From Candidatus Woesearchaeota archaeon (GTDB lineage: Archaea; Nanobdellota; Nanobdellia; Woesearchaeales; 21-14-0-10-32-9): 64,000 nucleotides of DNA. The stretch lies in NCBI GenBank assembly GCA_046543095.1, contig JBKHAC010000002.1, positions 2,525 through 66,524 of the forward strand, in the 5' to 3' direction. Positions within the stretch are counted from its first letter, which is position 1; each line of letters opens with the position of its first letter. This document shows, one piece after another, positions 3,596 to 63,603 of this stretch. Under the pieces are notes generated by a model. That model was not told where the DNA came from. It saw only the letters and a list, made by a program, of their open reading frames with translations, and ran no database searches. The translations under genes and the position numbers were made by a program.

Positions 3596-3738
3596 GGTTT
3601 TGTCCAGAATAATACAAATAGGTGTACTGCGCAAACCAATCGAAACTGACTTGTATGTTGAACTGAGTCTATCAAATCCCTTGTTTAATTTGAGTACTTT
3701 GCTAGGCAGTATACAAAATATAGATTCTGGACAAGACC
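3596..3738 (+). repeat. Family-1 hairpin repeat (MITE-like), divergent copy
   Basis: Shares GTGTACTGCGCAAACC ... TTTGCTAGGCAGTATACAAAA with copies at 394, 21802, 31529 and 63459. Terminal arms GTCCAGAATA/TATTCTGGAC are complementary. Confidence 0.75.
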
Positions 3739-3900
3739 TTATTTTATTAATATTAGAGCCTGAGTAAGTCCTTACGCTTACCTGAGCAAGTTTTACTCTT
3801 ATAACCATAAACAAATATATTTAAGAATTTAAATTTAGTTAGGCACTCAGAATTTATTTATTGAACATTAATATGCACATATTAAAAACTAATGTGTTTA

Positions 3901-4044
3901 TTACAAATCGGGTTTAATACCTCGCTGCTTCGCAGTGACTTCAGACTCGATTTGTAATGACAGAAAATCCGCCAGCGAAAATTCGCGTAATACTTCGCAG
4001 CTCTGCTGCGCGAGATAGCGAATTTTAGGATTTTCGTTTTATTT
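3901..4044 (+). ncRNA. Family-2 structured repeat; candidate small structured RNA gene (3 copies, all on the + strand)
   Basis: Nested stems TTACAAATCGGGT/ACTCGATTTGTAA, CTGCttcGCAG, GAAAATTCGC...GCGAATTTTC and CGCAGCtctGCTGCG. Ends in a T-rich tract. Copy-to-copy differences are tolerated only as G-T(U) pairs on the + strand. Confidence 0.45.
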
Positions 4045-4522
4045 GATATTTCGCATAAGCTCTATGTTATTTTATTAAGGGGTTTATAATTAAGGGCATA
4101 TAATTTTTATTAGGGGATTTTATAGAATACTTTAGGTTTCTGATTAGTTTTTGATAGGCAAGTTTTGTTTGATTTATGTTTATCAAAGTTTGTGAGGCTT
4201 TTACTATATTGTTATACAACTAAATTTTAATTGTTAAATATAAATTAATTTAGCTTATTGACTTTTTTTGAGTTTTAACCACGACTAAAAAAATAGAAAC
4301 TTTTATAAAGAAAAAGGTCTGGAACATATTGTTGTTTTTTATTAGAGGGTGTATCGACTAATGCTCGAAAACGAAACATTTATATATTATAGGATTTAAA
4401 TATATGAAAAGGTATATTGAAATACAATAACTTACATTAGTTTTGTTTGTTGGTGCATTACAAAAATACCGACGACAAATATAAAAATAATAAAAAAATA
4501 AAATCAAAAACCACTACGCGAG

Positions 4523-5359
4523 GTGAATCATTTGAAGAAAAAAATAACAATGCTTTTGATGACATTCATATTATTGTTTGGAGCATATTCAGTACTAGCA
4601 CAAACAACAGTTCCAGAAGCACCATCAACATTTACTGAGGAAGGCTCATCAAGACGAGACTCTGGTTTGTTGCCTGACCGCTCAATAGAAGCTATAGCAG
4701 GAAATATAACCGCACTAAATATGCACGGTAACACAGTTACAAGAACCTGGTTCGGTGTATATGGTAACGTAACAGGAACACTCGTTTTGAGCAATGGAGA
4801 AAACGATGTGATGTATGATTGGTCAGTTGCAAATCCTCGCGGACAAGTATATGCTACAAGAGCGCCTGAATTATCAGAAACAATTCTATGGAATCAAGTT
4901 GATTGCTATAACTACACAATAACTGACTTGGCAAATTATTATACAATCTCAGAATTAAACGCTGATCTTGGAATTAACCCAACACTAGATCAAGATGCAG
5001 TAAACAGAACATTTAGATACGCGGTTCCAGATCCCGTGGAACCATTGATACAACCGCCTGTGGCTCATTACCATAATGGCTTTTTTGTTGGAACAAAGGA
5101 AATTTTAGAAAATACTTGTCCTGCAACATCACTTTATAGCTCAGGTGCAAATCAAAATTGGGATAGATATCAGCAAGTATTATTATATAATGCAGGAGTT
5201 ACAGGAAATTCTAGCCTAATATATACATCAATAATTGAAGATGGTGAAGTCACAGGCTTTGATGGAACAGATATGGACTTTCAAATGTTACTCGGAGAAA
5301 ATGGTCATGATGGTGACACAGATACAACAACATATTATTTTTATGTAGAACTTGAATAG
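4523..5359 (+). CDS. Secreted paralog-family protein (Sec signal peptide, C-terminal TTYYFYVELE). The more likely start is the TTG at 4532 (MKKKITMLLM...).
   Basis: Signal peptide ...FGAYSVLA/QTT. SD CGAGGTG upstream. Conserved blocks shared with 5377, 8037 and 2..364. Confidence 0.6.
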   Translation: MNHLKKKITMLLMTFILLFGAYSVLAQTTVPEAPSTFTEEGSSRRDSGLLPDRSIEAIAGNITALNMHGNTVTRTWFGVYGNVTGTLVLSNGENDVMYDWSVANPRGQVYATRAPELSETILWNQVDCYNYTITDLANYYTISELNADLGINPTLDQDAVNRTFRYAVPDPVEPLIQPPVAHYHNGFFVGTKEILENTCPATSLYSSGANQNWDRYQQVLLYNAGVTGNSSLIYTSIIEDGEVTGFDGTDMDFQMLLGENGHDGDTDTTTYYFYVELE

Positions 5360-5376
5360 ACGAGGTGTTAAGAAAA

Positions 5377-6219
5377 ATGAAATCATTAAAATTAAGCTTA
5401 TTTTTAATAAGTATGCTATTTTTAGCAACAGCTACAAGCGCGTTTGTGGCAGTATCCGGATTTGACCCAACATACGAGGGTAATTTCTCAGATAGTGCTA
5501 ACCAACCAACAGTTATGACGCACGAGAGAGGATTTATACATGTAGTAAACATAGATAAATCACAACAAACTCCAAGATGGAAAGCATATGTCGGAAACAT
5601 CACAGGCGAACTAGCGCTAGGAGATGGAACATACTCTATTTTCAATTGGAATTTAACTACAATAACAGGTGAAATATACGCAACAAGATATAACGGAACA
5701 TTCGCATCATCCCCTCCAAATTTATCCGAGGAGTGGCCACAAGGTGATTCTAGTAACACATTACCAATATGGTCAACGATGGAATGCGCAACACAAGACG
5801 AAATAAATAATGAAACAACATTATTAAATCATAATTATGATTTAGATGTAGATGCACTTAACAGAACCTTCACAACAGGATTTACATTTCAAAACTTCGC
5901 AGTCGCAAGTAGAACTATAGATACATCAACTTGCAGAGGCACTTTTTTAAATTACAACGCAACAAATGATAACTCCGAGCAAGGCGTAGCAGGCTGGCAA
6001 CAAGTAGTACTAACAGATAGAGGAGATGGAATATCATCAGGAGCTGATTATGCACCTGACCTTATGTATGCAGCATTACTAAAAGACAGCGGACTAGGAT
6101 TTAACGGTGAAGTGTATGATTATCAAATCCTTTTACCAGAAAACGGGGATTTATCTGAGCAAAACCCTGACCCAATTCCCTACTACTTTTACATGGAATT
6201 ACTAGGTAGCGTGAACTGA
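5377..6219 (+). CDS. Secreted paralog-family protein, tandem to the CDS at 4523. The ORF track begins at the GTG at 5365; the ATG at 5377 has better SD spacing.
   Basis: Signal peptide MKSLKLSLFLISMLFLATATSA. Motifs HVVNIDKSQ, W.AYVGNITGEL.LGDG, IYATRYNG and C-terminal PYYFYMEL. Confidence 0.6.
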   Translation: MKSLKLSLFLISMLFLATATSAFVAVSGFDPTYEGNFSDSANQPTVMTHERGFIHVVNIDKSQQTPRWKAYVGNITGELALGDGTYSIFNWNLTTITGEIYATRYNGTFASSPPNLSEEWPQGDSSNTLPIWSTMECATQDEINNETTLLNHNYDLDVDALNRTFTTGFTFQNFAVASRTIDTSTCRGTFLNYNATNDNSEQGVAGWQQVVLTDRGDGISSGADYAPDLMYAALLKDSGLGFNGEVYDYQILLPENGDLSEQNPDPIPYYFYMELLGSVN

Positions 6220-6297
6220 AAACTTTTTTTCTTTTATTTTTTCTTTTATTTTTATCAATAAAGATTTTCTATAAGTATAAATGACTTAATTAGTTTA

Positions 6298-6396
6298 AAT
6301 TACGAGCGGAAGAATCCTCGCTTTTTAGCGTTAGCTAAAAAGTTAACTGAAGGTTAACCCTTTAGGGAGGGGAAGCGCCCTCTAACTTTTTCAATT
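6298..6396 (+). repeat. Family-3 hairpin-rich repeat (short form)
   Basis: GAGCGGAAGAATCCTCGC, TTTTTAGCgttaGCTAAAAA, GTTAACCgaagGTTAACC and AGGGagggGAAGCGCCCT stems. Longer copies at 39181 and 42906. Confidence 0.8.
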
Positions 6397-6722
6397 TAAA
6401 TTTATAATAAAATAATAAATCACACTATTAAACTAAACATGAATTAAGATAATAACTTAATTTATCTATATTATTTCTTAATGCTTTCAATTAATCAACT
6501 AATACTTTAAAATAACGACTTTTTCAAATTAAACACACCTTGAAAAAATTCAATAAAAACTAATGCACATATAAAAAATTTTAAAATAACAAATGCAATC
6601 AAATTTAAACATACTAAAAAAGTTCAGAAAAAGCATTAATTTAATTAATCTAATTTTGAATCTGAAATTAAACATCTCCAACAAAGGTTTATAATTTGAA
6701 ATATAAGATAAAAAAAACTAAT

Positions 6723-7718
6723 TTAAGAATTTAAAATTCTAAGCAAATCATCTTTAGATCTAGCTTCTCTGAGCTTATTTGCTAACTCATTATTGTGAAA
6801 AACATGATCAACCCAATTCGCAAAATCATTACGATGATCATTTACATGATGATAAAAAACCGCATCACTCATACTCTTAAGCTTTTCTTTAAGTTCACGA
6901 ATACTTGAAATAGTTTCACCATTTGATAGATTAAAATGCTTATTTTCATCAAGTTTATCTTCAACAAAATCAGACATCAATTTTTTTAATTCAGAAAGCT
7001 CACTTTTCAATTTACTCTCGCTTGTATCAACTTCTTTTTGAAGCAATTTAAGCTCACTTTTTTTAGTATGCCACATGTTTTCAAGAACTTTTAAAGATTC
7101 AATTTTACTATGTATTATTTGATTTAATTCATCATGATGAATGATGAAAGGGGTGCCACTATCTTCATTATCGTGAAAATCATTCAATGTATCGAATAAA
7201 TCTTTCTCAATTAAAGATTTCAATTTATTCTTTTTCTTTAAATCATCATCATTATCTTTATCAAGCAAAACTTGAAGTCTGGAGAAAAAACTATGATTAT
7301 CAACAGAGGGGGTGCTAGGTGTTAGACTTGGCTTATCATGAGTTGTTACTGCACTTGATTGAGATTGAGGTGTTTGCGCTGGCACGTTAGTTTGTTGACT
7401 TGCGGGTTCTGTTTTAGGCGCTTGCTGCAAGGGTTGTTTTACTGCTTCTTGTTCTTGCGGTTTTTGAACCGGTTCTTGAGCTTGAGGCGTTTGAGTAGAT
7501 ACATTGGTTTGTTGGCTTGCAGGCTCTGGATTAGGTGCTTGCTGCACTGGTTGCTCTACAGGTGATTCTTTTGCAGATTCAGGCTTGTTTAAACTAGGCA
7601 GACTATCAGGCACAGCAGTGACGCTAGGTGCGGGCTCTTCTTGATGTGGAAGTGCAGGTAAATGCTCGGGCACAGATTTACTTTCTGATTTTTTAGAACC
7701 TAATTTAAGTAATACCAA
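6723..7718 (-). CDS. Pro/Gln-rich low-complexity protein with a conserved C-terminal DFANWVDHV domain, paralogous to the C-terminus of the CDS at 10551
   Basis: C-terminal VFYHHVNDHRNDFANWVDHVFHNNELANKLR parallels FTKHVTEEKDDFANWIDHVLGLADIAQKLR in the 10551 protein. Contains an internal ~126-bp tandem DNA repeat encoding QQAP..EPASQQTNV.(T/A)QTPQ.Q. Confidence 0.55.
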   Translation of the reverse strand: MVLLKLGSKKSESKSVPEHLPALPHQEEPAPSVTAVPDSLPSLNKPESAKESPVEQPVQQAPNPEPASQQTNVSTQTPQAQEPVQKPQEQEAVKQPLQQAPKTEPASQQTNVPAQTPQSQSSAVTTHDKPSLTPSTPSVDNHSFFSRLQVLLDKDNDDDLKKKNKLKSLIEKDLFDTLNDFHDNEDSGTPFIIHHDELNQIIHSKIESLKVLENMWHTKKSELKLLQKEVDTSESKLKSELSELKKLMSDFVEDKLDENKHFNLSNGETISSIRELKEKLKSMSDAVFYHHVNDHRNDFANWVDHVFHNNELANKLREARSKDDLLRILNS

Positions 7719-7894
7719 TTAACAACCCACCTCTAAATATTTTTGGTCACTATTTATTTATAAATATGTCGATTTTTTCAACTTTATTTTCATTTTTTTT
7801 TCAAACTATTTAAACTATTTATTAAATTATTTTTACTTTCATGATTTATTTTCTGAATTTTATTTATTTCTTTGAATTGTTTATGTTATATGAA

Positions 7895-8028
7895 GTATAT
7901 TCGCAGTAGCGCTTTATATGACGCATAAAGATTAAAAAACTATTTGAAAATTATTTGAAATTTACTTTTAAAGCTCGAAAATTTATAATTCTCACATGTA
8001 ATTAAACTTGTTTGATTTTTCTCGTTTA
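7895..8028. repeat. Family-7 element ending in the palindrome AATTAAACTTGTTTGATT plus a T-run, located 3' of the gene at 8037
   Basis: Shares TATATTCGC(A/G)GTAGCGCTTTATATG ... CTATTTGAAAAT ... AATCAAACTTGTTTGATTTTTCTCGTTTA with 62052, 41393 and 53234. Confidence 0.7.
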
Positions 8029-9849: not shown

Positions 9850-10440
9850 ATGTTCAAACAAAAAAAAGCAGTTATGGGCGTAGGAATGCTACTAATATTT
9901 GTAGCGAGTATAGTCTCAGCAGCAATAGCTGCAGCACTACTTATAACATCAACAAATTTACTACAAGATAGAGCAGCTAAAGTACAACAAGACGCAACAG
10001 AAGGACTTATTAGTGGACTTGATGTAGTTTCAATATATGCAACAGGAAATATGACAACAGAGATAATATACGAATTTGAATTCATCACAAGGCTTAGAGC
10101 AGGATCAAGACCTGCACAACTAGACTCCTTAGGCCTTACATTTATACAAGGTGAAAACACAGCAACAGGATACATGAACACATCACTTATAGGCGATAAC
10201 TGCACATTTGAAAATCTTCAAGCTGAAACAGAATTTTGCGTGAATAAAATATTCGGCGATGAAAACACAGTACTTGAAAGTGGCGATATGGCAATTATAA
10301 AATACAAATTATCCAACGAATCCGCACTACCAACAGACACTCCCTTCGATATAATATTCCAACTTAGAGTCGGCTCACCTTTAATTATGGCCTTGCAAAC
10401 GCCTGATATGGTACTTAGCAGTAAGATAAGACTTAGATAA
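9850..10440 (+). CDS. flaB: Archaellin (FlaB-family) with a class III signal peptide
   Basis: N-terminus KKAVMG/VGMLLIFVASIVSAAIAAALLI followed by the archaellin-type conserved block LQDRAAKVQQDATEGLISGLDVVSIYATG. Confidence 0.75.
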   Translation: MFKQKKAVMGVGMLLIFVASIVSAAIAAALLITSTNLLQDRAAKVQQDATEGLISGLDVVSIYATGNMTTEIIYEFEFITRLRAGSRPAQLDSLGLTFIQGENTATGYMNTSLIGDNCTFENLQAETEFCVNKIFGDENTVLESGDMAIIKYKLSNESALPTDTPFDIIFQLRVGSPLIMALQTPDMVLSSKIRLR

Positions 10441-17018: not shown

Positions 17019-17477
17019 TTAAGTCGTGACAATTACACTATCGCCAACACCATTAGGTGCAACTATTCTCGCTTGATTTTTTGTGGAACTTACAAAAAAA
17101 TCAGGGACAACAACTAAAATAACTTCGCTAGGATCCCACGAAGTAGGATTACCAACACTAGTGTCAGATTCAACCGAAATCGAAAAATCATCACGCGAAA
17201 TACGCTGATTAGATAAAAAAACCTCAACTCTATCAAGCATTAAAAGCGTCTTACCAGTATTCGCTGCAGTAATCGTCGTCGTGTTCGTTTCGTTATCAAA
17301 AAAAGCAGAGGTAATAGATATGTCCGTTCTAAGCTCATCACTCAAACGATCTTTTTGAACAGCCATCGCAGCAGTAGTCTCACTAGCAAAATTACTCATA
17401 TAAAAAATAACACTAGCAGATATAGTCACAATCGCGATAAAAAACAACATGTTTGCTGCAACAGTTCCAAAACCCAT
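17019..17477 (-). CDS. flaG: Archaellum FlaG/FlaF-like protein (N-terminal TM plus beta domain)
   Basis: Position upstream of flaH. N-terminal hydrophobic helix MLFFIAIVTISASVIFY. About 150 aa. Confidence 0.55.
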   Translation of the reverse strand: MGFGTVAANMLFFIAIVTISASVIFYMSNFASETTAAMAVQKDRLSDELRTDISITSAFFDNETNTTTITAANTGKTLLMLDRVEVFLSNQRISRDDFSISVESDTSVGNPTSWDPSEVILVVVPDFFVSSTKNQARIVAPNGVGDSVIVTT

Positions 17478-17852: not shown

Positions 17853-18437
17853 ATGAAAAATTATAATAAAAAAGCAGAAGTAGCTATGGGCACGCTAATC
17901 ATATTTATCGCAATGATACTGATTGCAGCAGTCGCAGCAGCTGTTTTAATTTCATCAATAGGAAGTATTCAATCTAAAGCACTAGAGACTGGGTCTGCAA
18001 CAAGACAAGAAATAGGAACAAATGTAAATGTGGTCGAAATATACGGACCGAAAGATACAAATGAATCAACAATAACAAACATAAGCATGGTTGTACGCCT
18101 CGCAGCAGGATCAGACCCAATTAGACTTAGTGATTTACTTCTAACTATTGGCGCTGAGAATTTCACAAACGAATTCACATATAATTCAACAGACCATAAT
18201 AAAGGAGGAACTGCTGGCGCATCATTTAACGTATCATACCTTCTTGAAGGAAATAACAACCAACCTGATTATCTAGTTAAAGGAGACGTTGCAAGATTCG
18301 ATTTAGAACTTGAATATGCAGTAGGAGAAGATGCGAGTTTAAGATTTACACTTATACCAAAAATAGGAACTCCCGCAATAGTGTTTGCAACAACACCTAA
18401 TGCAATAGCAAATTCAAGAGAAACTATTTTCCCATAA
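17853..18437 (+). CDS. flaB: Archaellin (FlaB-family), tandem copy 1
   Basis: KKAEVAMG/TLIIFIAMILIAAVAAAVLISS class III signal/archaellin N-terminus. Divergent from flaGHIJ. Confidence 0.85.
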   Translation: MKNYNKKAEVAMGTLIIFIAMILIAAVAAAVLISSIGSIQSKALETGSATRQEIGTNVNVVEIYGPKDTNESTITNISMVVRLAAGSDPIRLSDLLLTIGAENFTNEFTYNSTDHNKGGTAGASFNVSYLLEGNNNQPDYLVKGDVARFDLELEYAVGEDASLRFTLIPKIGTPAIVFATTPNAIANSRETIFP

Positions 18438-18653: not shown

Positions 18654-19226
18654 ATGAGAAAAAATAATAAAAAAGGAGAAGTTGCTATGGGCACATTAAT
18701 TATATTCATAGCAATGATACTGATTGCAGCAGTCGCAGCAGCAGTTTTAATATCTTCCATAGGAAGTATTCAATCTAAAGCACTAGAGACTGGGTCTGCA
18801 ACAAGACAAGAAATAGGAACAAACATCAACACAGTAGAAATCTACGGATTTAAAGATGGTGATGATGCTACAATGACTAACTTTAGCATGGTTACAAGAC
18901 TTGCAGCAGGATCAGACCCTGTAAGACTTGGAGATTTATTATTAACAGTTGGAACAGAATCATTTACTGATGAGTATACATACAACTCAACAAATTTGAG
19001 TGCGGGCACCACATTTAATGCATCTTACTTGCTTAAAGGTGCAAACAATCAAAATGGTTATATAGTTAAAGGTGACGTTGTGAGACTTGATTTTATTTTA
19101 AGTGATACAATCGGCGAAGATGCAACAATGAGATTTACAATGATTCCAAAAATTGGAACTCCAGCAGTTGTATTTGCATCAACACCAACAACTATTGCGA
19201 ACTCTAGAGAAACAGTTTTCCCATAA
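18654..19226 (+). CDS. flaB: Archaellin (FlaB-family), tandem copy 2
   Basis: Same N-terminus as 17853. About 110 nt of 5' coding sequence is nearly identical between the two copies. Confidence 0.85.
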   Translation: MRKNNKKGEVAMGTLIIFIAMILIAAVAAAVLISSIGSIQSKALETGSATRQEIGTNINTVEIYGFKDGDDATMTNFSMVTRLAAGSDPVRLGDLLLTVGTESFTDEYTYNSTNLSAGTTFNASYLLKGANNQNGYIVKGDVVRLDFILSDTIGEDATMRFTMIPKIGTPAVVFASTPTTIANSRETVFP

Positions 19227-19455: not shown

Positions 19456-20568
19456 TTAGAATTTAAAGGTCAAAGACTTATCTTTTTTATTAATAGATAC
19501 AAACTTCTTATTAGATTTCATAACTCGCTCAAGAGCATCTAAACCCTCTTCTTTTCTAATTTTATTCGCATCATTAATCAATTTTTGAAAATCTTGATAA
19601 TTACTATAAACAAACTCGCCCTTCGCCTGATTCTCCTCGATTTTACGCTCAAACGATTTAATCATCTTTTCCTGAATATCAACTAATGAAGCCGTTTTAT
19701 CCTTCTTTTTCTGAGCAGGCTTTATAGCATCTTCTTTAATTAAAGGCGAAAGCAAATCAATACCCGCACTAATGCTCTCAACACTATCGCCGCTTTTAGT
19801 TAACATACGCGTAGGAAAAATATTATTATTTGAAATAAAAGGCTCAATTTCACTTGAAAAGAACGATTTAATCGCACCCATTAATTTCATAGTATCAGTT
19901 TTTGAAATAGTCTCAGCATCTTTATCTAGATTCGCAATAGTGATAAGCTCCTCAGCATAAACACCACCCAAACCAAACTTTGCTGCAAGCGTCTTCACAA
20001 GAGATCTATCCGAATCATTAACTATTTTTATAAGTTCATCTTCAGTTGTTAATAGAGGATTGATTAATTCAGGAGGAAATTCATAAGGCTTCCTCGCCTG
20101 AATGACCCTATCTTTAAAACGCTGACGCTCAAAAGAATTCAAAACAATCAAAGAATTATCTTCACTTTTTTTACATAAAACAACATTACCGGGCTTGAAT
20201 AATTCAACAATCAATAAATAAGAACCCTCTTTTTTTGAGAATTTAACTGTGAGAATACGCTCAAAACCCCTCTGCTCAAGCGACTCAATACGAGCATTAG
20301 TTAAATATTTACGCAAAAACATACAAAAACCAGGAGGAAGCATAGGGGCATTAAATTCTTGAGATGTTAAAGAAACAAAACTCGGCGCACAAATCCTAAA
20401 ATTATACTTCGCACCCTCTTTATAAATCCGAAAAATAATAGTGTCTTTACCAAGCTGATAAATCTTCTCGACTTTACCACCAACAAGAGTATTCAATTCA
20501 CGAACTTGAAAATGCAAAAGCGCAGATGATGTTTCATTAACCATAAATAAAAGAAAAACAACACACAT
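19456..20568 (-). CDS. NFACT-N (FbpA/RqcH/NEMF-like) domain protein, short form
   Basis: N-terminal LHFQVRELNTLVGGKVEKIYQ...FRI...NFRICAPSFVSLT...PPGFCMFLRKYLTNARIESLEQRGFERIL matches the NFACT-N consensus. 370 aa, i.e. lacks the long C-terminal half of canonical NEMF. Confidence 0.55.
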   Translation of the reverse strand: MCVVFLLFMVNETSSALLHFQVRELNTLVGGKVEKIYQLGKDTIIFRIYKEGAKYNFRICAPSFVSLTSQEFNAPMLPPGFCMFLRKYLTNARIESLEQRGFERILTVKFSKKEGSYLLIVELFKPGNVVLCKKSEDNSLIVLNSFERQRFKDRVIQARKPYEFPPELINPLLTTEDELIKIVNDSDRSLVKTLAAKFGLGGVYAEELITIANLDKDAETISKTDTMKLMGAIKSFFSSEIEPFISNNNIFPTRMLTKSGDSVESISAGIDLLSPLIKEDAIKPAQKKKDKTASLVDIQEKMIKSFERKIEENQAKGEFVYSNYQDFQKLINDANKIRKEEGLDALERVMKSNKKFVSINKKDKSLTFKF

Positions 20569-20717
20569 TATTAAATATTTACATTAATAACAATAAAAAT
20601 CAATTTGTCCCAAATAATACAAAAAAATATACGCCGCGCAAAACTACGCAAATCAAATGAAATTCAATGACAGTAATCTAATAAAAATAATTCAATAAAA
20701 ATAATTTGATAAACAGA

Positions 20718-20880
20718 CCTCATAGAAATCCTTTTCGAACCAATAAAATCTTAATGATGCCTCGCTTCGTTTTCATGTTATTTAGATATTTGAATCGAGT
20801 CTCACATACAACGGATGTTTGATCTAGAACTTAAGCAAGATAGCATTATTATTAAAATTTTAATAGAATTTCTATGAGGC
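20718..20880 (+). repeat. Family-4 ~165-bp TIR element
   Basis: Termini CCTCATAGAAATCC ... GAATTTCTATGAGG. Copies at 29905 (-), 37908 and 48043. Confidence 0.8.
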
Positions 20881-20927
20881 TAATAAAAAGTACGTGCATA
20901 GCGCAACGAGCATCTCTTCTTTAGATG

Positions 20928-21000
20928 TATTTAAAACCGAGTCTAGTGTATCACATTTATAAACACGGAGCTCGTTTAGGCGCTAGCTATGCATGCACAA
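20928..21000 (+). repeat. Family-6 element (core related to family 5)
   Basis: AAAACCGAGTCTAGT...AAACACGGAGCTCGTTTAGGCGCTAGCTA, also at 55196..55260. Confidence 0.6.
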
Positions 21001-21124
21001 TAAAAATAAAGATTTATAAATGAAAAACCATTCCTCAAAGTAAAACCGACCTTAAAACAAACTTCGTTTTAAGATAGCCGCGTGAGGTAAAAAAAATTCG
21101 CGGAGCTTCTAATTAAGCTTTGGT

Positions 21125-21724
21125 TTGGAGGAAAAACAAATGAGTGATGAAACTTTATTAATAGCAAATGACGAGTATTTAAAATCAGGAATACACATAG
21201 GAACAAAATTTAGAACAAAATACATGGATAACTTCATATACAAAACAAGACCAGACGGACTTAGCGTTCTAAACGTACAAAAAATAGACGAGAGAATAAA
21301 ACACGCAGCAAATATGCTATCAAATTACGCACCACACGAAATACTAATAGTGTGCAGACGTGAAACAGGATGGAAAGCAGTCAAATTATTCTCAGAGATA
21401 ACAGGTTCGAAACACTTCGCAGGAAGATACCCGCCAGGAGTACTTACAAACCCCTCACTTAAAAACTTCATAGAAGCAAAAATAGTACTCGTCGCAGACT
21501 CATGGCCAGATAAAAACGCAGTAGAAGACGCATTAAAAATAGGCCTACCAGTAATAGCACTATGCGATACAAACAACCAAACAAACAACATAGACCTCGT
21601 TGTGCCATGCAATAACAAAGGTAAAAAAAGCCTAGGTCTTGTATTCTATTTACTTGCAAAATTATACACAGAGAAAAAAGGAATAGAATTTAAATACACA
21701 ATTAATGATTTTACAGAAGAATAA
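21125..21724 (+). CDS. rps2: Ribosomal protein uS2 (S2/Sa)
   Basis: LLIANDEYLKSGIHIGTKFRTKYMDNFIYKTRPDGLSVLNVQKIDERIKHA matches the uS2 consensus. About 200 aa, the archaeal size. Confidence 0.85.
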   Translation: MEEKQMSDETLLIANDEYLKSGIHIGTKFRTKYMDNFIYKTRPDGLSVLNVQKIDERIKHAANMLSNYAPHEILIVCRRETGWKAVKLFSEITGSKHFAGRYPPGVLTNPSLKNFIEAKIVLVADSWPDKNAVEDALKIGLPVIALCDTNNQTNNIDLVVPCNNKGKKSLGLVFYLLAKLYTEKKGIEFKYTINDFTEE

Positions 21725-21801
21725 ATACTAAACATTTTTTTTCTTTTTTTCCACTTCTATTTTTTAATATTTCAAGATATGTTAATATCGCCTAAGAAAG
21801 A

Positions 21802-21946
21802 GACTTTGTCCCGAATAGTTGTTTTTTGTATACTGCCGAGCAAACCACTCAAAATAAACATTGATTTTTATAGACTCGAATTTAAACCCTAGTGAACATT
21901 GTTCGGTTTGCGCAGTATACAATTCATTGTTATTCGGGACAAAGCC
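21802..21946 (-). repeat. Family-1 hairpin repeat, inverted orientation
   Basis: Reverse complement aligns to the 31529 copy. Stem GTCCCGAATA/TATTCGGGAC carries compensatory changes. Confidence 0.85.
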
Positions 21947-21970
21947 AAGAAAAAAATTAATTTAAAAAAA

Positions 21971-22696
21971 CTAATCAGAACTAGTATTAGTGTCGATATC
22001 AGTGTCATGAATGCCTGTATCTCTAATTACAAAAGACACTTCTTTACCCTCAGGCAAACTCCTATGCTTTCTAATGATTGCTTTTTTTTCAGTATCATGA
22101 CGCTGAAGTTCAATTAAACATTTACTTGCATAACGCAAAATATCCCCACCAACCATATTAATTTTATTTTTATCCTCAAAATCAGCATAAACTTGATTCG
22201 TCACAATTACAGGAATTTTAAATTTACGCGCAATCTGAATTAAATTCACAAGCTGAACACCCAAATCCCTATTAACTTTAAAAACCTCCTTAGTAATGCC
22301 AATCTCAAGCCTATAGAGCATCGCGATACTATCAACAATAATTAAACCAATCTTATCAGTCACAAGATTCTTAAGCTTCTCAAAAACTTTTTTCTGCTCA
22401 GAAAAATTAGTCGGAGTTAAAACAATAACTTTCCTTAAAATCTCATCATAATTATCAGCAAGCTGCTTAATTCTCGAAATAGAAAAAGAACCCTCAGTAT
22501 CAACATAAATGACTTTTTTATCATAATTATTAACCATAGCAAGCAAACACATATTAGACTTACCAGAACCAGGAGGACCATAAATAGTTGTGATTACTTC
22601 ATTTTCATAACCGCCTTCAAGCAACCAATCCAAAATATCAGAACCAGTACTTACCTTAGTATCTTCGTTTTTCATTTTATCAAAACAAGAAAACAC
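21971..22696 (-). CDS. radB: RecA-superfamily ATPase, RadB-like
   Basis: DILDWLLEGGYENEVITTIYGPPGSGKSNMCL Walker A. About 240 aa. Walker B IIVDSIA. Confidence 0.55.
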   Translation of the reverse strand: MFSCFDKMKNEDTKVSTGSDILDWLLEGGYENEVITTIYGPPGSGKSNMCLLAMVNNYDKKVIYVDTEGSFSISRIKQLADNYDEILRKVIVLTPTNFSEQKKVFEKLKNLVTDKIGLIIVDSIAMLYRLEIGITKEVFKVNRDLGVQLVNLIQIARKFKIPVIVTNQVYADFEDKNKINMVGGDILRYASKCLIELQRHDTEKKAIIRKHRSLPEGKEVSFVIRDTGIHDTDIDTNTSSD

Positions 22697-22730
22697 GCTC
22701 TTGTTTTTTTAAGTTTCGCTAAATTTTCCC

Positions 22731-23132
22731 CTAAACTTCCGGAACAGACTCAAATAAAGATAATAACCCAGACTTAATTGAGCCTTTATCAGTAATATTA
22801 TCATGAATCTTAGGATTAATAGTCCAATGCATAGCTCTTTGAGGATTTGCAAAAAGAAAAATAATATTAACATTTTTCAAAACAGACCAATTATTAATCA
22901 ACCAATCAAAATTAACCTTGGTATTAAGACAAGAAACCCTAACATTATCTAAATTTGACGCATCCAATTCAATTAAATTATCAACACACAAATACTTATG
23001 AGTTGAACCATCCTTCATAACACAAACAATTTCTCCTTTATCCTTTAAAACATCTATTTTACTGATGCTTCGTTTAATCGAATCTTTATACCGCAAATAC
23101 GCCTCAGTCCAACCAATAATATCTAAAGTCAT
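22731..23132 (-). CDS. Hypothetical protein
   Basis: ORF only. 7-bp gap to the next gene. Confidence 0.3.
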   Translation of the reverse strand: MTLDIIGWTEAYLRYKDSIKRSISKIDVLKDKGEIVCVMKDGSTHKYLCVDNLIELDASNLDNVRVSCLNTKVNFDWLINNWSVLKNVNIIFLFANPQRAMHWTINPKIHDNITDKGSIKSGLLSLFESVPEV

Positions 23133-23138
23133 AAAATC

Positions 23139-23555
23139 TTACCTTGAATTTTTATAATAATGGTATGCAAAAGGTATTAAAAAACTTATGGTGAAAGTAA
23201 ACGCACCAAGAAACGCCAAAATAGACGTTTTATCACTAAAAACCATGAAAGATGCACTCAGAGCAATAAAATTAATTAAAGCAGTAATTAAAATAATAGA
23301 AAATAAACCCGCATGATGCGTGTGTGTAAGCTCATCCAAGTCATGAAAAAAACCTTTTAAGAAAGCACCAAGAGAGACACCCAAAATAAACAAAACAAGA
23401 TGAACATGAATTAATTTACCAAACAATAATAGCGGACTTAGTAAGAAAAGCACACAAGATATAAAAATAATAGTTAAACTTAACAAAATATAATATAATA
23501 ATTCATGAGATTTTCTCCTCTTAGACTTCACCATTAAAAACATATTATTAATCAA
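23139..23555 (-). CDS. Hypothetical membrane protein (4 predicted TM)
   Basis: Hydrophobicity pattern. Confidence 0.35.
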   Translation of the reverse strand: MINNMFLMVKSKRRKSHELLYYILLSLTIIFISCVLFLLSPLLLFGKLIHVHLVLFILGVSLGAFLKGFFHDLDELTHTHHAGLFSIILITALINFIALSASFMVFSDKTSILAFLGAFTFTISFLIPFAYHYYKNSR

Positions 23556-23652
23556 ATTATTTAAATATTTACTTTCTAAAACAACGAGTTGAATAATATA
23601 ATGATTAATTTAATTTAATTATATGATAAATAAAACAGAAATATGAAAAAAA

Positions 23653-23768
23653 GGTGGACAGCTTTCCGGATCTCCCGCCCTTGAAGGCAGTACGCACCGG
23701 AACGTGCATGTGCTTGACTTCCGTGTTCGAAATGAGAACGGGTATATCCACACGGCTTTGACCGTCCA
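23653..23768 (-). rRNA. rrf: 5S ribosomal RNA
   Basis: Reverse complement reads GGACGGTCAAAGCC...CCGTTCTCATTTCGAACACGGAAGTCAAGC...GTACTGCCTTCAAGGGCGGGAGA...GCTGTCCACC. Helix I termini pair. Matches the universal 5S loop C and helix IV/V consensus. GC-rich island in an AT-rich context. Confidence 0.85.
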
Positions 23769-23982
23769 ATACATAGGAATGCACATCCCTTTATAAAGCT
23801 TTTTCTTAAAAATAATTATCTTCAATAATGAAAATAAATTATTTTTCAGGATTTTTAAAAATTATGAAATAAATGTCTTAAATGTCTTGTTCATAATACT
23901 GCAAATATTCCACATAATTATTATCTCATCATGAACTAAAAAAATAAAAGATTTTTAAAGAAAAGACAAGTAATAAAATAAA

Positions 23983-24654
23983 ATGAACGCCGAATTAAAC
24001 GATGTTTTTATTATACTCCCAGGCTACAACGAGGAAAAACACGCACAAAATACAATTTTAGAGCTTGAGATGGAAGGATATAAAAACATAATCTTTATCG
24101 ATGATGGAAGCATGGATAAAACTGCTAATGCTGTTTTAAAAACAAACGCGACCCTATTAAAACACAAAGTAAATCTTGGCAAAGGCGCAGCAACAAAAAC
24201 AGGATGCGATTATGCAATATCTAAAGGCGCAAAGATAATAATTTTAATGGACAGCGACGGACAACACGAAGCAAAATATGTAAAAAAATTCATAAAAGCA
24301 CTAAAAAACAAAGACATAGTGTTTAGTTATAGAAAATTTGACGAGAACATGCCAAAAATGATGAAACTTGGAAACATATTCTTATCAACAGCATCAAATA
24401 TGTTATTCAATTATAAAATAAAAGACACACAAGCAGGATTTAGAGCATTTACAACAGATGCATACAAAAAAATAAGATGGCACTCAAATAATTACGCAAT
24501 GGAGAGCGAAATGATAGCAAGAGCAGCCAAACACAAACTAAAATACGACGAAATAGAAATAAAAACAATATACCACGACAAACACAAAGGAACAACACCA
24601 CTAGACGGCCCAAAAGTATTATTTAATATGATGAGATTCAAATTCTTCGATTAA
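23983..24654 (+). CDS. Family 2 glycosyltransferase (dolichyl-phosphate sugar synthase-like)
   Basis: IILPGYNEE...IIFIDDGSMDKT...DSDGQH motifs of GT-A/GT2. Confidence 0.7.
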   Translation: MNAELNDVFIILPGYNEEKHAQNTILELEMEGYKNIIFIDDGSMDKTANAVLKTNATLLKHKVNLGKGAATKTGCDYAISKGAKIIILMDSDGQHEAKYVKKFIKALKNKDIVFSYRKFDENMPKMMKLGNIFLSTASNMLFNYKIKDTQAGFRAFTTDAYKKIRWHSNNYAMESEMIARAAKHKLKYDEIEIKTIYHDKHKGTTPLDGPKVLFNMMRFKFFD

Positions 24655-29840: not shown

Positions 29841-29904
29841 AAAACATCATTCTTTATTTTTTTAATTCATTTTTTATTAAATCAACAAAAAACGCTAATT
29901 CTTA

Positions 29905-30068
29905 GGCCTTATAGGAATCCTATTAAAATTTTAATAATGATGCTATCTTGCCTAAGTCATAGATCAAACATCTGTGGTGTGTGAGACTCGGTTCAAATGT
30001 CTAAATAATATGGAAACGGAGCATAGCATCATTAAGATTTTATTGGTTCGAAAAGGATTTCTATGGCG
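29905..30068 (-). repeat. Family-4 TIR element (inverted copy)
   Basis: Reverse complement matches 37908..38086. Confidence 0.8.
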
Positions 30069-30115
30069 CCAATTCTTAGAAAAGTATAAAAAGAGAACTT
30101 GTTTAAATAAAACTT

Positions 30116-31528: not shown

Positions 31529-31673
31529 GGCTCTGTCCCAAATAACAATGAAGTGTATACTGCGCAAACCGAACAATGTTCACTAGATTTTAAATCCGAG
31601 TCCATAAAAACCAATGTTTATTTTGAGTGGTTTGCTCGGCAGTATACAAAAAACAACTATTTGGGACAAAGCC
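31529..31673 (+). repeat. Family-1 hairpin repeat (reference copy)
   Basis: 145 bp with imperfect long inverted arms and an internal palindrome GAACAATGTTC. Confidence 0.85.
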
Positions 31674-37878: not shown

Positions 37879-37907
37879 AATAAGCCAAAAATAATATTAT
37901 CAAAAAG

Positions 37908-38086
37908 GTCTCATAGAAATAAGGCCTCATAGAAATCCTTCTCGAACCAATAAAATCTTAATGATGCTATGCTCCGTTTCCATATTATTTAGACATTTGA
38001 ACCGAGCCCTACACACCACAGATGTTTGATCTGAGACTTAGGCAAGATAGCATCATTATTAAAATTTTAATAGGATTTCTATAAGA
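37908..38086 (+). repeat. Family-4 TIR element, with a duplicated left terminus
   Basis: GGTCTCATAGAAATAAGGCCTCATAGAAATCC ... GGATTTCTATAAG. Confidence 0.8.
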
Positions 38087-38132
38087 TCATCAAAAACCAA
38101 AATTTAAATACTAAAAAAACTTTTTAAAAAAA

Positions 38133-39034: not shown

Positions 39035-39180
39035 AAAATATTAAAAATTTTATGAAACTAAAACATATTTAAATTAACACAAAATAGCGCACCTCACAAA
39101 ACAAGATACTTCAAAAATACATTGAGCACTGAGACTAATGGCTCTAAAGTTCAAAGGAACAAATATATTTGTATAACTTA

Positions 39181-39370
39181 AATTACGAGCGGAAGAAATC
39201 CTCAATTTTTTTGCGCGGGGCAAAAAAATGTTACCTTTAGGCTTCAGATTTTTTCTCTCTCTAATTTGCCAAAGTTAAAGCGGAAGAAATCCTTGATTTT
39301 TAGCGTTAGCTAAAAAGTTAACCGAAGGTTAACCCTTTAGGGCGGGGAAGTGCCCTCCAACTTTTTCAAT
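39181..39370 (+). repeat. Family-3 repeat, long form (duplicated head module plus a TTTTTTTGCgcgggGCAAAAAAA hairpin)
   Basis: Aligns with 42906..43097 and with 6298..6396 over its 3' 100 nt. Confidence 0.8.
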
Positions 39371-39488
39371 TAAGCAGTATTAATTTTACACAGCACTAAA
39401 ATATTATAACACAAATTAAAAAAAATTTTATTTCTAGAGCCTCTAATATTAGCAAAATATAAATATGCGGCCATCTTCCTAAACAATT

Positions 39489-40131: not shown

Positions 40132-40730
40132 ATGCGAGAAGAATTCGTAAAAAAACTACAAGAAAAAGGAGTAGCAAAAAATCCAAGAGTTGCAGCAGCA
40201 CTAAAAGACACAAACCGCGCAGACTTTATGATAACAGGCGACCCAGAACAAGATGAACCACAAAGAATTTACGCAGGACAAACAATAAGCCAACCATACA
40301 CAGTAGCGTTCATGCTAGACTTATTAAGACTCAAACCCGGACAAAAAATATTAGATGTCGGAAGTGAAAGCGGATGGACAACCACTCTTCTCGCACACAT
40401 AACAGGAGAAGAAGAAAATGTAATAGGTGTAAAAATAGAACCAGAACTCGTATCATTTGGACAAAACAATTTAAAAAAAATACCTTTTTGAAAATACAAA
40501 AATAATCAAAGCAACTACAAACACATACGGCGCGCCAGAATACACATTATACAACAGACTACAACTATCTGCCGCGGCAACAGAAGAAGCAATACAAATA
40601 CTATTAAAACAATTAAAATCAGATGGAATAGTAGTAGAACCCTTAGGCCAAGAAATACTAAAAATAACAAAAGAAAAAAGAGAAAGATGGCGAAGTTTTA
40701 GTTTTGTACCACTCAAAAAAATAAATTCAT
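40132..40730 (+). pseudogene. pcm: Protein-L-isoaspartate O-methyltransferase with a +1 frame break at an A8 run (40481..40488). Intact if the run were A7.
   Basis: N-terminal part ends ...NNLKKIPF* at 40491. The next frame continues YLFENTKIIKATTNTYGAPEY...GIVVEPLG...FSFVPLKKINS, matching the PCMT C-terminal half. Confidence 0.6.
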
Positions 40731-41371: not shown

Positions 41372-41392
41372 CTATTTTTTAGGTTATATAAA

Positions 41393-41480
41393 GTATATTC
41401 ACGGTAACGCGTTCATATAATACAGAAAAATCAAACTACTATTTGAAAATTTAATCAAACTTGTTTGATTTCTCTGGTTA
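41393..41480 (+). repeat. Family-7 element with the AATCAAACTTGTTTGATT palindrome, 3' of the gene ending at 41371
   Basis: GTATATTCACGGTAACGCGTTCATATAA...CTATTTGAAAATTTAATCAAACTTGTTTGATTTCTCTGG. Confidence 0.7.
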
Positions 41481-42462: not shown

Positions 42463-42488
42463 TTTTTTTAATTTTTTTATTGGTTTTA

Positions 42489-42632
42489 TTACAAATTGAG
42501 TTTAATACCTCGCTGCTTCGCAGTGACTTCAGACTCGATTTGTAATGACAGAAAATCCGCCAGCTAAAATTCGCGTCAGTACTACGCAGCTCTGCTGCGC
42601 GAGATAGCGAATTTTAGGATTTTCGTTTTATT
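42489..42632 (+). ncRNA. Family-2 structured element, copy B, ending directly at the SD of the gene at 42642
   Basis: Same stems as 3901..4044. Outer stem TTACAAATTGAGT/ACTCGATTTGTAA has a T-G wobble. Confidence 0.45.
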
Positions 42633-42887: not shown

Positions 42888-42905
42888 TTTTTTCTTTTTT
42901 TCTTT

Positions 42906-43097
42906 AAATTACGAGCGGAAGAAATCCTCAATTTTTTTGCGTCAAGGAAAAAAATGTTGCCTTTAGGCTTCAGATGTTTTCCCTCACTAATTTGCTAAAG
43001 TTAGAGCGGAAGAATCCTCGCTTTTTAGCGTTAGCTAAAAAGTTAACCGAAGGTTAACCCTTTAGGGGGGGGAAGTGCCCTCTAACTCTTTCAATTT
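42906..43097 (+). repeat. Family-3 repeat, long form; a partial extra copy at 43141..43215
   Basis: Aligns to 39181..39370. Confidence 0.8.
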
Positions 43098-47950: not shown

Positions 47951-48042
47951 TCTCTAAAGCCTCCTTATATGCGCATACGCACACAAATTATTTATCCAAC
48001 TTTATTTATAACCTCTCGACTTTAAAAATATTTCTTTTAATC

Positions 48043-48208
48043 GGACTCATAGAAATCCTTTTCGAACCAATAAAATCTTAATGATGCTATGCTCCGTTTC
48101 CATATTATTTAGACATTTGAACCGAGCCCTACACACCACAGATGTTTGATATATGACTTAGGCAAGATAGCATCATTATTAAAATTTCAATAGAATTTCT
48201 ATAAGGCC
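48043..48208 (+). repeat. Family-4 TIR element
   Basis: GGACTCATAGAAATCC ... GAATTTCTATAAGGCC. Confidence 0.8.
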
Positions 48209-48303
48209 ATTTAATTAGCTGCAGGCAAAAATCTTGCAGGACGCAACAATCATAACTCGCAATTTAATAATATTTAAATAAACAGGGTCCAACCCCAATA
48301 ATA

Positions 48304-49980: not shown

Positions 49981-50194
49981 AAGAATAAATAAACAAAAAA
50001 AAACAAATTTAAAACTTACTCAAAAAAAACCGAAAAAACCACGAACAAAATTAAAAATATGACTTTTAAAAATTATAATTGTTTTATAATATCTTCACAT
50101 CATAAAATCTTTTTATGATACAACCGAGTCTTAAATATGATACTTAGGTGCCAGCTACACATGCACAAAAATCAGGTCTTGCCTAGAATGGTGC

Positions 50195-50320
50195 AAATAT
50201 GTATGCTGCACAAATTAATAAAGCCAGAATTGTTTATTAAAACGAGGTTATTGAAACCAATATTTGAGTTCAGTGGTTTGCCAAACAGTATACAAAATAC
50301 AGACATTCTAAATAAGCACA
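50195..50320 (+). repeat. Degenerate family-1 repeat copy in the leader region upstream of rpl1
   Basis: GAAACCAATATTTGAGTTCAGTGGTTTGCCAAACAGTATACAAAATACAGAC aligns to AAACCAATGTTTATTTTGAGTGGTTTGCTCGGCAGTATACAAAAAACAAC. Confidence 0.55.
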
Positions 50321-54140: not shown

Positions 54141-54167
54141 TTAAATAATTTATTAAAATAAAGTTGT

Positions 54168-54294
54168 GGACAAAATTTTTTGGTAATACCACGAACTTCG
54201 AGCATTATTTGGTTCGTGGTGCCGAGTCTATTTAATTCGTGTTTAAATCCATATTGCTCGTTTAGGTATTACCAACTTTTTATATCCTTTACTA
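54168..54294 (+). repeat. Family-5 TIR element
   Basis: GGTAATACCACGAACTTCGAG ... CTCGTTTAGGTATTACC. Copies at 55265, 57523 (head) and 58228 (tail). Confidence 0.75.
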
Positions 54295-54969: not shown

Positions 54970-55036
54970 AACTACAAGGATAAAAAAACAATTTTTCTAA
55001 CAATACCTGCATAGCGTAGACGAGCAAAGAGTTTTA

Positions 55037-55180
55037 TTACAAATTGGGTTTAATACCCCGCTGCTTCGCAGTGACTTCAGACTCGATTTGTAATGACAGA
55101 AAATCCGCCAGCGAAAATTCGCGTCAGTACTCCGCAGCTCTGCTGCGCGAGATAGCGAATTTTAGGATTTTCGTTTTATT
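55037..55180 (+). ncRNA. Family-2 structured element, copy C
   Basis: Outer stem TTACAAATTGGGT/ACTCGATTTGTAA (two G-T wobbles). Inner stems conserved. Confidence 0.45.
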
Positions 55181-55195
55181 TCGTTTTTAAAACCG

Positions 55196-55260
55196 AGTCT
55201 AGTTAAAACGTGTTTGTAAACACAGGGCTCTTTTAAGCGCTAGCTACTCTCTACTTTTTA
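55196..55260 (+). repeat. Family-6 element
   Basis: Matches 20928..21000. Confidence 0.6.
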
Positions 55261-55264
55261 GCAA

Positions 55265-55395
55265 TGGACAAAAGTTTTTGATAATGCCACGAGCTTCGCA
55301 TATTATTTAGTATATGGCACCGAGTCTATCGAATTCGTATTTGAATTCGTATTGCTCTTTTAGGCATTACCAACTTTTTATGTCCTCAACTATTT
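55265..55395 (+). repeat. Family-5 TIR element (intact reference copy)
   Basis: GACAAAAGTTTTTGATAATGCCACGAGCTTCGC ... GTATTGCTCTTTTAGGCATTACCAACTTTTTATGTCCTCAACTA. Confidence 0.75.
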
Positions 55396-57470: not shown

Positions 57471-57522
57471 AAACCTAAGAATAAACAGCTTAAAATATAA
57501 ATTTTTTCATAAATTAGTCACA

Positions 57523-57640
57523 GACAAAAGTTTTTGATAATGCCACGAGCTTCGCATATTGGTTGGTTTGTGGCGCCGAGCATGTTGAATTCGTGTTTAA
57601 ATTTGTATTGCCCGCCAGAGGCTCTCTTAATTTTAAAAAC
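57523..57640 (+). repeat. Family-5 element head, interrupted at 57612..57622
   Basis: Matches 55265..55375, then diverges at CCGCCAGAGGC. Confidence 0.7.
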
Positions 57641-62021: not shown

Positions 62022-62051
62022 AAAACCAGTTCTTTTTTATGTCATATAAAT

Positions 62052-62139
62052 TATATTCGCGTTAGCGCTTTATATGCCACACAAAAATCAAACAACTATT
62101 TAAAAAATTTAATCAAACTTATTTGATTTTTCTCGTTTA
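62052..62139 (+). repeat. Family-7 element with the AATCAAACTTATTTGATT palindrome, between the ferredoxin and the U32 gene
   Basis: TATATTCGCGTTAGCGCTTTATATGCCACACAAAA ... AATCAAACTTATTTGATTTTTCTCGTTTA. Confidence 0.7.
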
Positions 62140-63458: not shown

Positions 63459-63603
63459 TGCTCCGCCCCAAATAACAATGAAGTGTATACTGCGCAAACC
63501 GAACAATGTTCACTAGATTTTAAATCCGAGTCCATAAAAACCAATGTTTATTTTGAGTGATTTGCTCGGCAGTATACAAAAAACAACTATTTGGGACAAA
63601 ACC
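63459..63603 (+). repeat. Family-1 hairpin repeat
   Basis: Near-identical to 31529..31673 (a few substitutions). Confidence 0.85.

Follow-up and report, generated by a model that had tools for sequence, protein, structure and literature searches.

Genomic Context of the Repeats

The window, as we call here the whole stretch of 64 kb of DNA that was analysed, has a G+C content of ~32% and carries genes of evident archaeal type next to the repeats described below (a eukaryotic/archaeal-type uS2, an archaeal RqcH, Hef, a GINS subunit, and archaellins, with topoisomerase VI found in relatives). For uS2 and Trm5, the nearest sequences carry the label Candidatus Woesearchaeota or Nanoarchaeia. Compared with the assembly GCA_964462285.1, the window is 100% identical over contig 12 and differs by a single mismatch along 11.8 kb of contig 10, and it is also 100% identical to the Logan contigs of run SRR11308339. 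The organism was encountered in one sample only. Its short-read contigs end inside the elements, as expected for dispersed repeats, and the element family accounts for the break points of the short-read assemblies of this genome.

Several other features of the window deserve mention. A 5S rRNA gene is located at 23653–23769 (-), while neither a 23S nor a 16S rRNA gene was found in the 64 kb and ARAGORN detected no tRNA genes in the window. Tandem paralogous archaellin genes (17853–18437 and 18654–19226, ~80% identical at the DNA level) adjoin FlaI/FlaH-like genes, and more archaellin-family ORFs appear at 9850–10440 and 17019–17477. The protein-L-isoaspartate methyltransferase ORF at 40132–40491 (+) reaches only to about position 120 of its 210-position profile before a TGA stop, and may be a truncated or interrupted gene.

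Four copies of a 166-bp element, all of them intergenic and with unrelated flanks, are found within 27.5 kb (20716–48208), the nearest gene being 28–147 nt away from each. Their boundaries were set by the flanking duplications, which shifts them ~2 nt outward from the coordinates first given to them:

20716–20881, + strand: copy 1, 166 bp, RqcH (-) on one side and uS2 (+) on the other, adjoining an 'x' element at ~20890–21000; flanking 8-mers GATAAACA (left, 20708–20715) and AATAAAAA (right, 20882–20889), 6/8 matching
29905–30070, - strand: copy 2, 166 bp, 64 nt 3' of the stop codon of a DEAD-box helicase and 45 nt ahead of a 65-aa ORF; left and right 8-mers both TAAGAATT, or AATTCTTA on the + strand at 29897–29904 and 30071–30078, 8/8 matching
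37907–38088, + strand: copy 3, 182 bp, a 265-aa ORF on one side and a DUF2304 gene on the other; left and right 8-mers both ATCAAAAA (37899–37906 and 38089–38096), 8/8 matching
48043–48208, + strand: copy 4, 166 bp, DUF4234 (-) on one side and Gins51 (+) on the other; flanking 8-mers TTTTAATC (left, 48035–48042) and ATTTAATT (right, 48209–48216), 6/8 matching

Structure of the 166-bp Element

The length is exactly 166 bp per copy, copy 3 reaching 182 bp by means of an extra 16-nt left terminus. Its left end is a tandem of 37907–37922 (GGTCTCATAGAAATAA) and 37923–37938, and the 8-bp duplication brackets the outer of these two termini, with the doubled terminus lying inside the duplication. Copies 2–4 are 93–95% identical to each other, and copy 1, with 84–87% identity to the others, is the oldest and most diverged one. 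The ends are imperfect terminal inverted repeats of 16 nt that begin with GG (written GGCCTCATAGAAATCC / GGATTTCTATRAGGCC, the first being the consensus), of which 12–13 of the 16 positions are complementary in each copy. When the window was searched for GGCCTCATAGAAATCC allowing up to three mismatches, nine matches were obtained (0.32 expected from shuffled sequences), and all nine are element ends.

The whole element is an imperfect palindrome that would form a long imperfect hairpin on either strand, with an RNA minimum free energy of -39 kcal/mol for the + strand and -49 kcal/mol for the - strand (z ~-4.5 against dinucleotide shuffles). The sole internal ORF, of 22 codons, has no conserved counterpart in the sister families described below (judged by eye); it was rejected as coding, given the many non-synonymous changes in copy 1 and its absence from those families. 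A preliminary description of this DNA had already placed four copies here, singled out the first as the most diverged, noticed a duplicated left terminus in the copy then put at 37908, and seen in the internal long inverted repeat a fold-back element. All this is confirmed by the full-length alignment of the copies, their identities, the coordinates of the tandem termini and the stability of the hairpin. The terminal inverted repeats that it described are also present, although not with the 14 bp proposed, the true ends being the GG-initiated 16-mers.

Target-Site Duplications and Transposition

Short direct repeats at the insertion sites, which the preliminary description had proposed to look for, were found at the four copies. 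They are 8 bp long, they differ from copy to copy, and in all cases the targets are AT-rich intergenic 8-mers. We placed a 166-bp segment at random 200,000 times in this AT-rich window, obtaining probabilities of 3.6e-4 for 8/8 matches, 3.5e-3 for at least seven, and 0.019 for at least 6/8. The four per-copy probabilities multiplied give ~5e-11. The degree of matching tracks the age of the copies only partly, as the duplication of the old copy 1 has decayed to 6/8 and that of the undiverged copy 4 is also 6/8.

[quoted passage not shown] The non-autonomous transposon that had been suggested on first inspection is therefore well supported by the duplications, and the element is very probably a 166-bp non-coding MITE whose 16-nt GG-initiated ends would be recognized by a transposase with its gene in another part of the genome. 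That the repeats are immobile instead, and derive from segmental duplication, gene conversion, or assembly artefacts, might be suspected from their source, a metagenome-assembled genome (MAG), and from the location of copy 1 precisely where the gene order departs from that of relatives. Sharp and identical boundaries with unrelated flanks, a separate and different 8-bp duplication at each copy, and the identical assembly in the NCBI contigs and the Logan contigs of run SRR11308339 all speak against such an origin, which we regard as exceedingly improbable.

Sister Families and a Shared Central Core

Three other families of elements in the window, designated D1, D6, and 'x', are related to the one under study:

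394–538 (+, representative), 3596–3738, 21802–21946 (-), 31529–31673, 50175–50319, and 63459–63603: D1, 145 bp, six copies
~54165–54290, 55262–55390 (+), and 57518–57610: D6, three copies, the last one truncated
~20890–21000 (+), 50060–50174, and 55190–55260: 'x', three copies, two of them truncated

The six D1 copies are also flanked by 8-bp duplications, matching at 8, 8, 7, 7, 8, and 8 of the eight positions (that of D1_f was re-read by eye with the end one base outward, at 50319). We looked for target duplications in D6 as well, where no convincing ones could be defined, and neither D6 nor 'x' has cleanly defined ends. In each of the 'x' copies, one end is the site of, or adjoins, the insertion of a different element. 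Nested or abutting insertions are seen for copy 1 and the 'x' at 20890 and for the D1 at 50175 and the 'x' at 50060, and members of D5 (a different repeat, see below), 'x', and D6 are packed together at 55031–55390.

What the four families have in common is an oriented, non-palindromic central core of ~70 nt with the pattern CCGAGTCT...TGTTT...TTAGG, or in full TTATTTAG..(6–10)..AACCGAGTCTA..(8–12)..RTGTTTRA..GCTC..TTAGG. In all of them a CCGAGTC or CCGAG motif is found 3–7 nt 5' of the exact centre of the element, that is, of the hairpin apex, and the arms outside the core show no comparable similarity between families. Local alignment scores exceeded those of shuffled sequences for the inter-family pairs, always in one relative orientation, with z values of 7.5 for D1 and 'x', 5.4 for the studied family and D6 (core TTCGCATATTATTTAG..CACCGAGTCT, the highest value of the other families against the studied one), 4.9 for D1e and D6, 3.9 for D6 and 'x', and 3.0 for the studied family and 'x'. 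A fold common to the cores was tested for and none was found across the families, the sister cores reaching from -9 to -16 kcal/mol for 73–77 nt. The four families make up a local superfamily with a shared core. The centre is more conserved across them than the ends, which is the reverse of what recognition by a transposase alone would predict.

Repeats of other kinds also occur in the window. D5 is relatively G+C-rich and ~165 nt long (3897–4044, 42474–42632, and 55032–55181, with an inverted copy at 4021–4186 of L043, a second contig of this MAG, 12 kb long); it has two strong hairpins and TTTTATT on both sides, has no obvious terminal inverted repeat, and the copy that was tested gave no Rfam match. 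It is an element of a different kind, or possibly a structured RNA. The G+C-rich D8/D12 repeats (6296–6397, 39178–39372, and 42904–43097) contain internal hairpins (AGCGGAAGAAATCCTCG... and GGGCGGGGAAGTGCCCTC) and form a tandem pair of related units at two loci. Finally, D10 consists of TTATATAAAGTATATTCGCGGTAGCGC... followed by a conserved palindrome, AATCAAACTTGTTTGATTT (7877–7950, 41375–41448, and 62033–62106), and one more copy, oppositely oriented, is found at the terminus of contig L043.

Strand Bias and Alternative Readings of the Core

Most of the core-containing elements (14 of 16) are in the + orientation (binomial P = 0.004, a post hoc statistic from one 64-kb region). Such a shared orientation is not predicted by a symmetric cut-and-paste reaction. 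The eight elements that lie in divergent intergenic regions are all in this same orientation (8/8; P ~0.004–0.008 for both counts, again post hoc), and in such a setting the direction of the genes cannot account for it. The window has in addition a strong and uniform asymmetry in strand composition, with an AT skew of +0.13 to +0.35 in 15 of 16 bins of 4 kb (+0.02 at 4001–8000) and a negative GC skew in 14 of 16. The sign of the skew stays the same over blocks of + and - strand genes, so that it is not a coding-strand effect, and the window contains no switch point. Contig L043 has the same skew, and there the D5 and D10 copies are inverted.

Neither the conserved core nor the strand bias is explained by mobilization in trans. 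One could think that the ~70-nt core at the hairpin apex is a functional module, either a strand-specific site of mobilization or a signal at the protein or RNA level, which we judge unlikely; if it were so, the same-strand bias would reflect replication-directed insertion or selection. Taking core and bias together, a functional or strand-specific reading seems to us decidedly unlikely. In its more concrete form, the element would be mobilized by an enzyme (a hairpin-recognizing Y1/HUH-type or other strand-specific one) that reads the core at the apex of a folded single strand and not the terminal repeats, or else the core would be a cargo with a function of its own, for instance as a promoter or a site of protein binding, on account of which the elements are retained. 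The position of CCGAGTC near the exact centre of four families with dissimilar arms, the single orientation of the similarity between families, the bias of 14/16 overall and 8/8 in divergent regions, and the uniform skew are all in line with this. Against it, the known hairpin-recognizing transposons (IS200/IS605 with its PATE derivatives, and REP/RAYT) have neither target duplications nor terminal inverted repeats, whereas our element has both, and the ends of D1 match the signature of a known DDE family (PMC7986276, PMC6807381). Moreover, the orientation statistic was obtained post hoc from a single 64-kb region, and D5 and D10 are oppositely oriented to the same skew on the second contig. 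All in all, we consider core-directed mobilization or cargo quite improbable.

A structured RNA was also considered, with the elements as a paralogous family of genes or cis-acting sites (a small RNA, a regulatory hairpin, or a processing or termination signal). The long hairpin on both strands, well below shuffled sequences in energy, the oriented core conserved between families with differing arms, and the orientation shared by 14 of 16 elements would all fit this, as would the 11-bp apical stem of the + strand, which uses G–U pairs that are A–C mismatches on the other strand. This apical stem is nevertheless missing from the sister families, the cores of which fold differently and weakly, and in the consensus fold of the four copies no pair has changed in a compensatory way, while five are broken in the diverged one (with n = 4, a comparison of little power), which looks like neutral decay and not like a selected RNA fold. 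Duplications of 8 bp and boundaries at exactly 166 bp are signs of transposition that RNA paralogues would not be expected to show, copy 2 is inverted relative to both of its neighbour genes, and no elements are present in relatives in which the neighbour genes are conserved. There was no Rfam match to them either, as Rfam 15 returned for the window only the 5S rRNA at the gathering threshold and only chance-level matches at E <= 10. An RNA family is thus a very improbable origin for these repeats. The core was also examined by eye for a hammerhead, a C/D-box, or a K-turn, all of which were rejected since the motifs do not fit and Rfam gave no match, and integron attC sites and origin-recognition boxes were rejected because the conserved part is central instead of terminal and the neighbours are housekeeping genes.

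Distribution in Relatives and Sequence Collections

We searched with nhmmer for further members, using profiles of the family alignment and of the shared core, and retrieved 15 elements from the window itself, whereas 139 kb of related archaeal loci, nearly all from Woesearchaeota, yielded none. None of the superfamily elements is present on L043 either. The gene order PepM3, 245/250-aa gene, Trm5, Gins51, L1, L10 has a syntenic counterpart in a JGI relative (L042), and part of it is kept in an ENA contig (L041). In these two relatives, the region upstream of Gins51 contains no element and measures only 47 nt where it follows Trm5 or 97 nt where it follows a gene of 219 aa; in the window the interval is 353 nt long and holds copy 4. 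A promoter-like box, TTTAATAATATTTAWAT, ends the upstream region of Gins51 in these relatives, and the same box is found 3' of copy 4. The site is therefore empty in two relatives at the level of gene order, the relatives themselves (Trm5 65–70% identical) being too distant for a base-exact comparison.

The loci of the uS2 relatives (89–90% identical) have no element, and the interval that holds the D1 copy at 21802–21946 measures 246 nt here and 18 nt in them, a coarse intergenic comparison. The order of genes in 19456–24654 differs from that in 10001–14217 of L003/L004 exactly at copy 1 and its adjacent 'x', being RqcH(-) / elements / uS2 here and TopoVI-A / uS2 ... GT2 / RqcH(+) in the relatives. 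Copy 1 thus coincides in position with a departure from the gene order of relatives, and together with the adjacent 'x' marks a rearrangement junction. When Hef was used to probe the genome collection, the only locus obtained was one from Archaeoglobi, with 43% identity.

Searches of wider collections with words taken from the element gave no genuine relative of the studied family in any of them. An exact 25-mer had no matches in 185,579 species-representative genomes, and a 21-mer made of the inner terminal repeat and adjacent sequence had none in IMG/VR. The single JGI metagenome match of this 21-mer was discarded as a chance match inside a cyanobacterial contig. In IMG/VR there were 24 single matches of the 16-mer terminal repeat and one of the D1 end, none of which proved to be an element by profile search. 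We have here a new, previously uncatalogued MITE family, one of several related ones that arose in a lineage-specific burst in this Woesearchaeota genome.

Transposase and Proposed Mechanism of Mobilization

The statement of the preliminary description that the window holds no cognate transposase proved correct, as none of its 63 major ORFs or gene calls matched a transposase family in a Pfam or NCBIfam scan, which was repeated at E <= 0.05 for ten ORFs without annotation. Beyond the window, no transposase was called in the adjoining 7.5 kb of contig or on the further 12-kb contig of the MAG, and a longer element with matching ends was likewise missing from the window, the 7.5-kb extensions, and the 12-kb contig. 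We infer that mobilization occurs in trans, most likely by a DDE transposase with an 8-bp stagger. Such an enzyme would bind the 16-nt GG-initiated ends and join the element to AT-rich intergenic target DNA cut with this stagger, and repair of the gaps would then leave the 8-bp direct repeat on both sides of the copy. The direct duplications surround single copies, which indicates simple insertions, either by cut-and-paste or, in the case of an IS6-like enzyme, by the formation of a cointegrate and its resolution. The family has expanded in this Woesearchaeota lineage, with three copies that are 93–95% identical and an older one, the duplication of which has decayed.

As to the origin of the enzyme, duplications of 8 bp and GG-initiated ends are known in the ISL3, IS256, and IS1595 families, which are possible sources. 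Our best guess is an archaeal IS6-like enzyme, because the sister family D1 has ends of IS6 type and IS6 elements produce 8-bp duplications. The latter are described as having an end signature of GG tips, cTGTt, and caaa (PMC7986276) and an end consensus, GGTTCTGTTGCAAA, in which G10 is absent from the archaeal members (PMC6807381). The terminal repeat of D1, GGCTCTGTCCCAAATA, displays this signature as GG..CTGT..CAAA (PMC7986276) and agrees with the consensus in 11 of its 14 positions; it has G1, G2, and G7 and, like the archaeal members, no G10 (PMC6807381). The ends of the studied family fit it poorly, GGCCTCATAGAAATCC agreeing at 7/14 positions, with the GG tips and an AAA run in common and an A at position 7 in place of G7, so that the IS6 attribution comes through the sister family D1.

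A new MITE family in an uncultivated archaeon is in itself a routine result. The only features that might lead to something new are the shared asymmetric core and the strand bias.

Comparison with Known Systems

Imperfect palindromes of ~100–170 bp that are intergenic and form hairpins when transcribed are well known in bacteria, such as the Correia elements of Neisseria, the enterobacterial ERIC sequences, and the palindromic elements of Rickettsia. In some bacterial fold-back repeats the centre binds a protein or acts as a promoter, and the target duplication of Correia elements is TA. Our element resembles all of these in being an intergenic imperfect palindrome with a long hairpin, although there is no sequence relationship and its duplication is 8 bp and not the TA of Correia. 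With the IS200/IS605-derived PATEs and with REP/RAYT elements it shares a non-autonomous nature, a richness in hairpins, and a strand-biased orientation, but membership in either group was rejected given its terminal inverted repeats and 8-bp duplications, both of which are missing in them.

Closer parallels are the MITEs derived from IS6, of which two are catalogued in ISfinder (MITEBth2 and MITEHarch3; PMC7986276, PMC6807381), IS6-like elements being widespread in archaea. They are also short and non-coding, with two inverted ends, GG tips, and an 8-bp duplication, and the end signature GG..CTGT..CAAA is present in the sister family D1. They are longer than the studied element (227 and 336 bp compared with 166 bp), the ends of which depart from the IS6 consensus as described above and lack the conserved G7, and no IS6-type transposase is found among the 63 ORFs of the window.

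Within the archaea, the SM1–SM4 elements of Sulfolobus are an example of MITEs. Like archaeal MITEs in general, the family described here is intergenic, multicopy, non-autonomous, and lineage-specific, and is delimited by terminal repeats. In a census of archaeal MITEs one Woesearchaeal genome had among the highest densities, with 105 per Mb (PMC11602168). The local density that we find is much higher, with ~16 core-sharing elements in 64 kb; this very dense load of related non-autonomous elements in a small DPANN genome fits the observation of a MITE-rich Woesearchaeal genome (PMC11602168).
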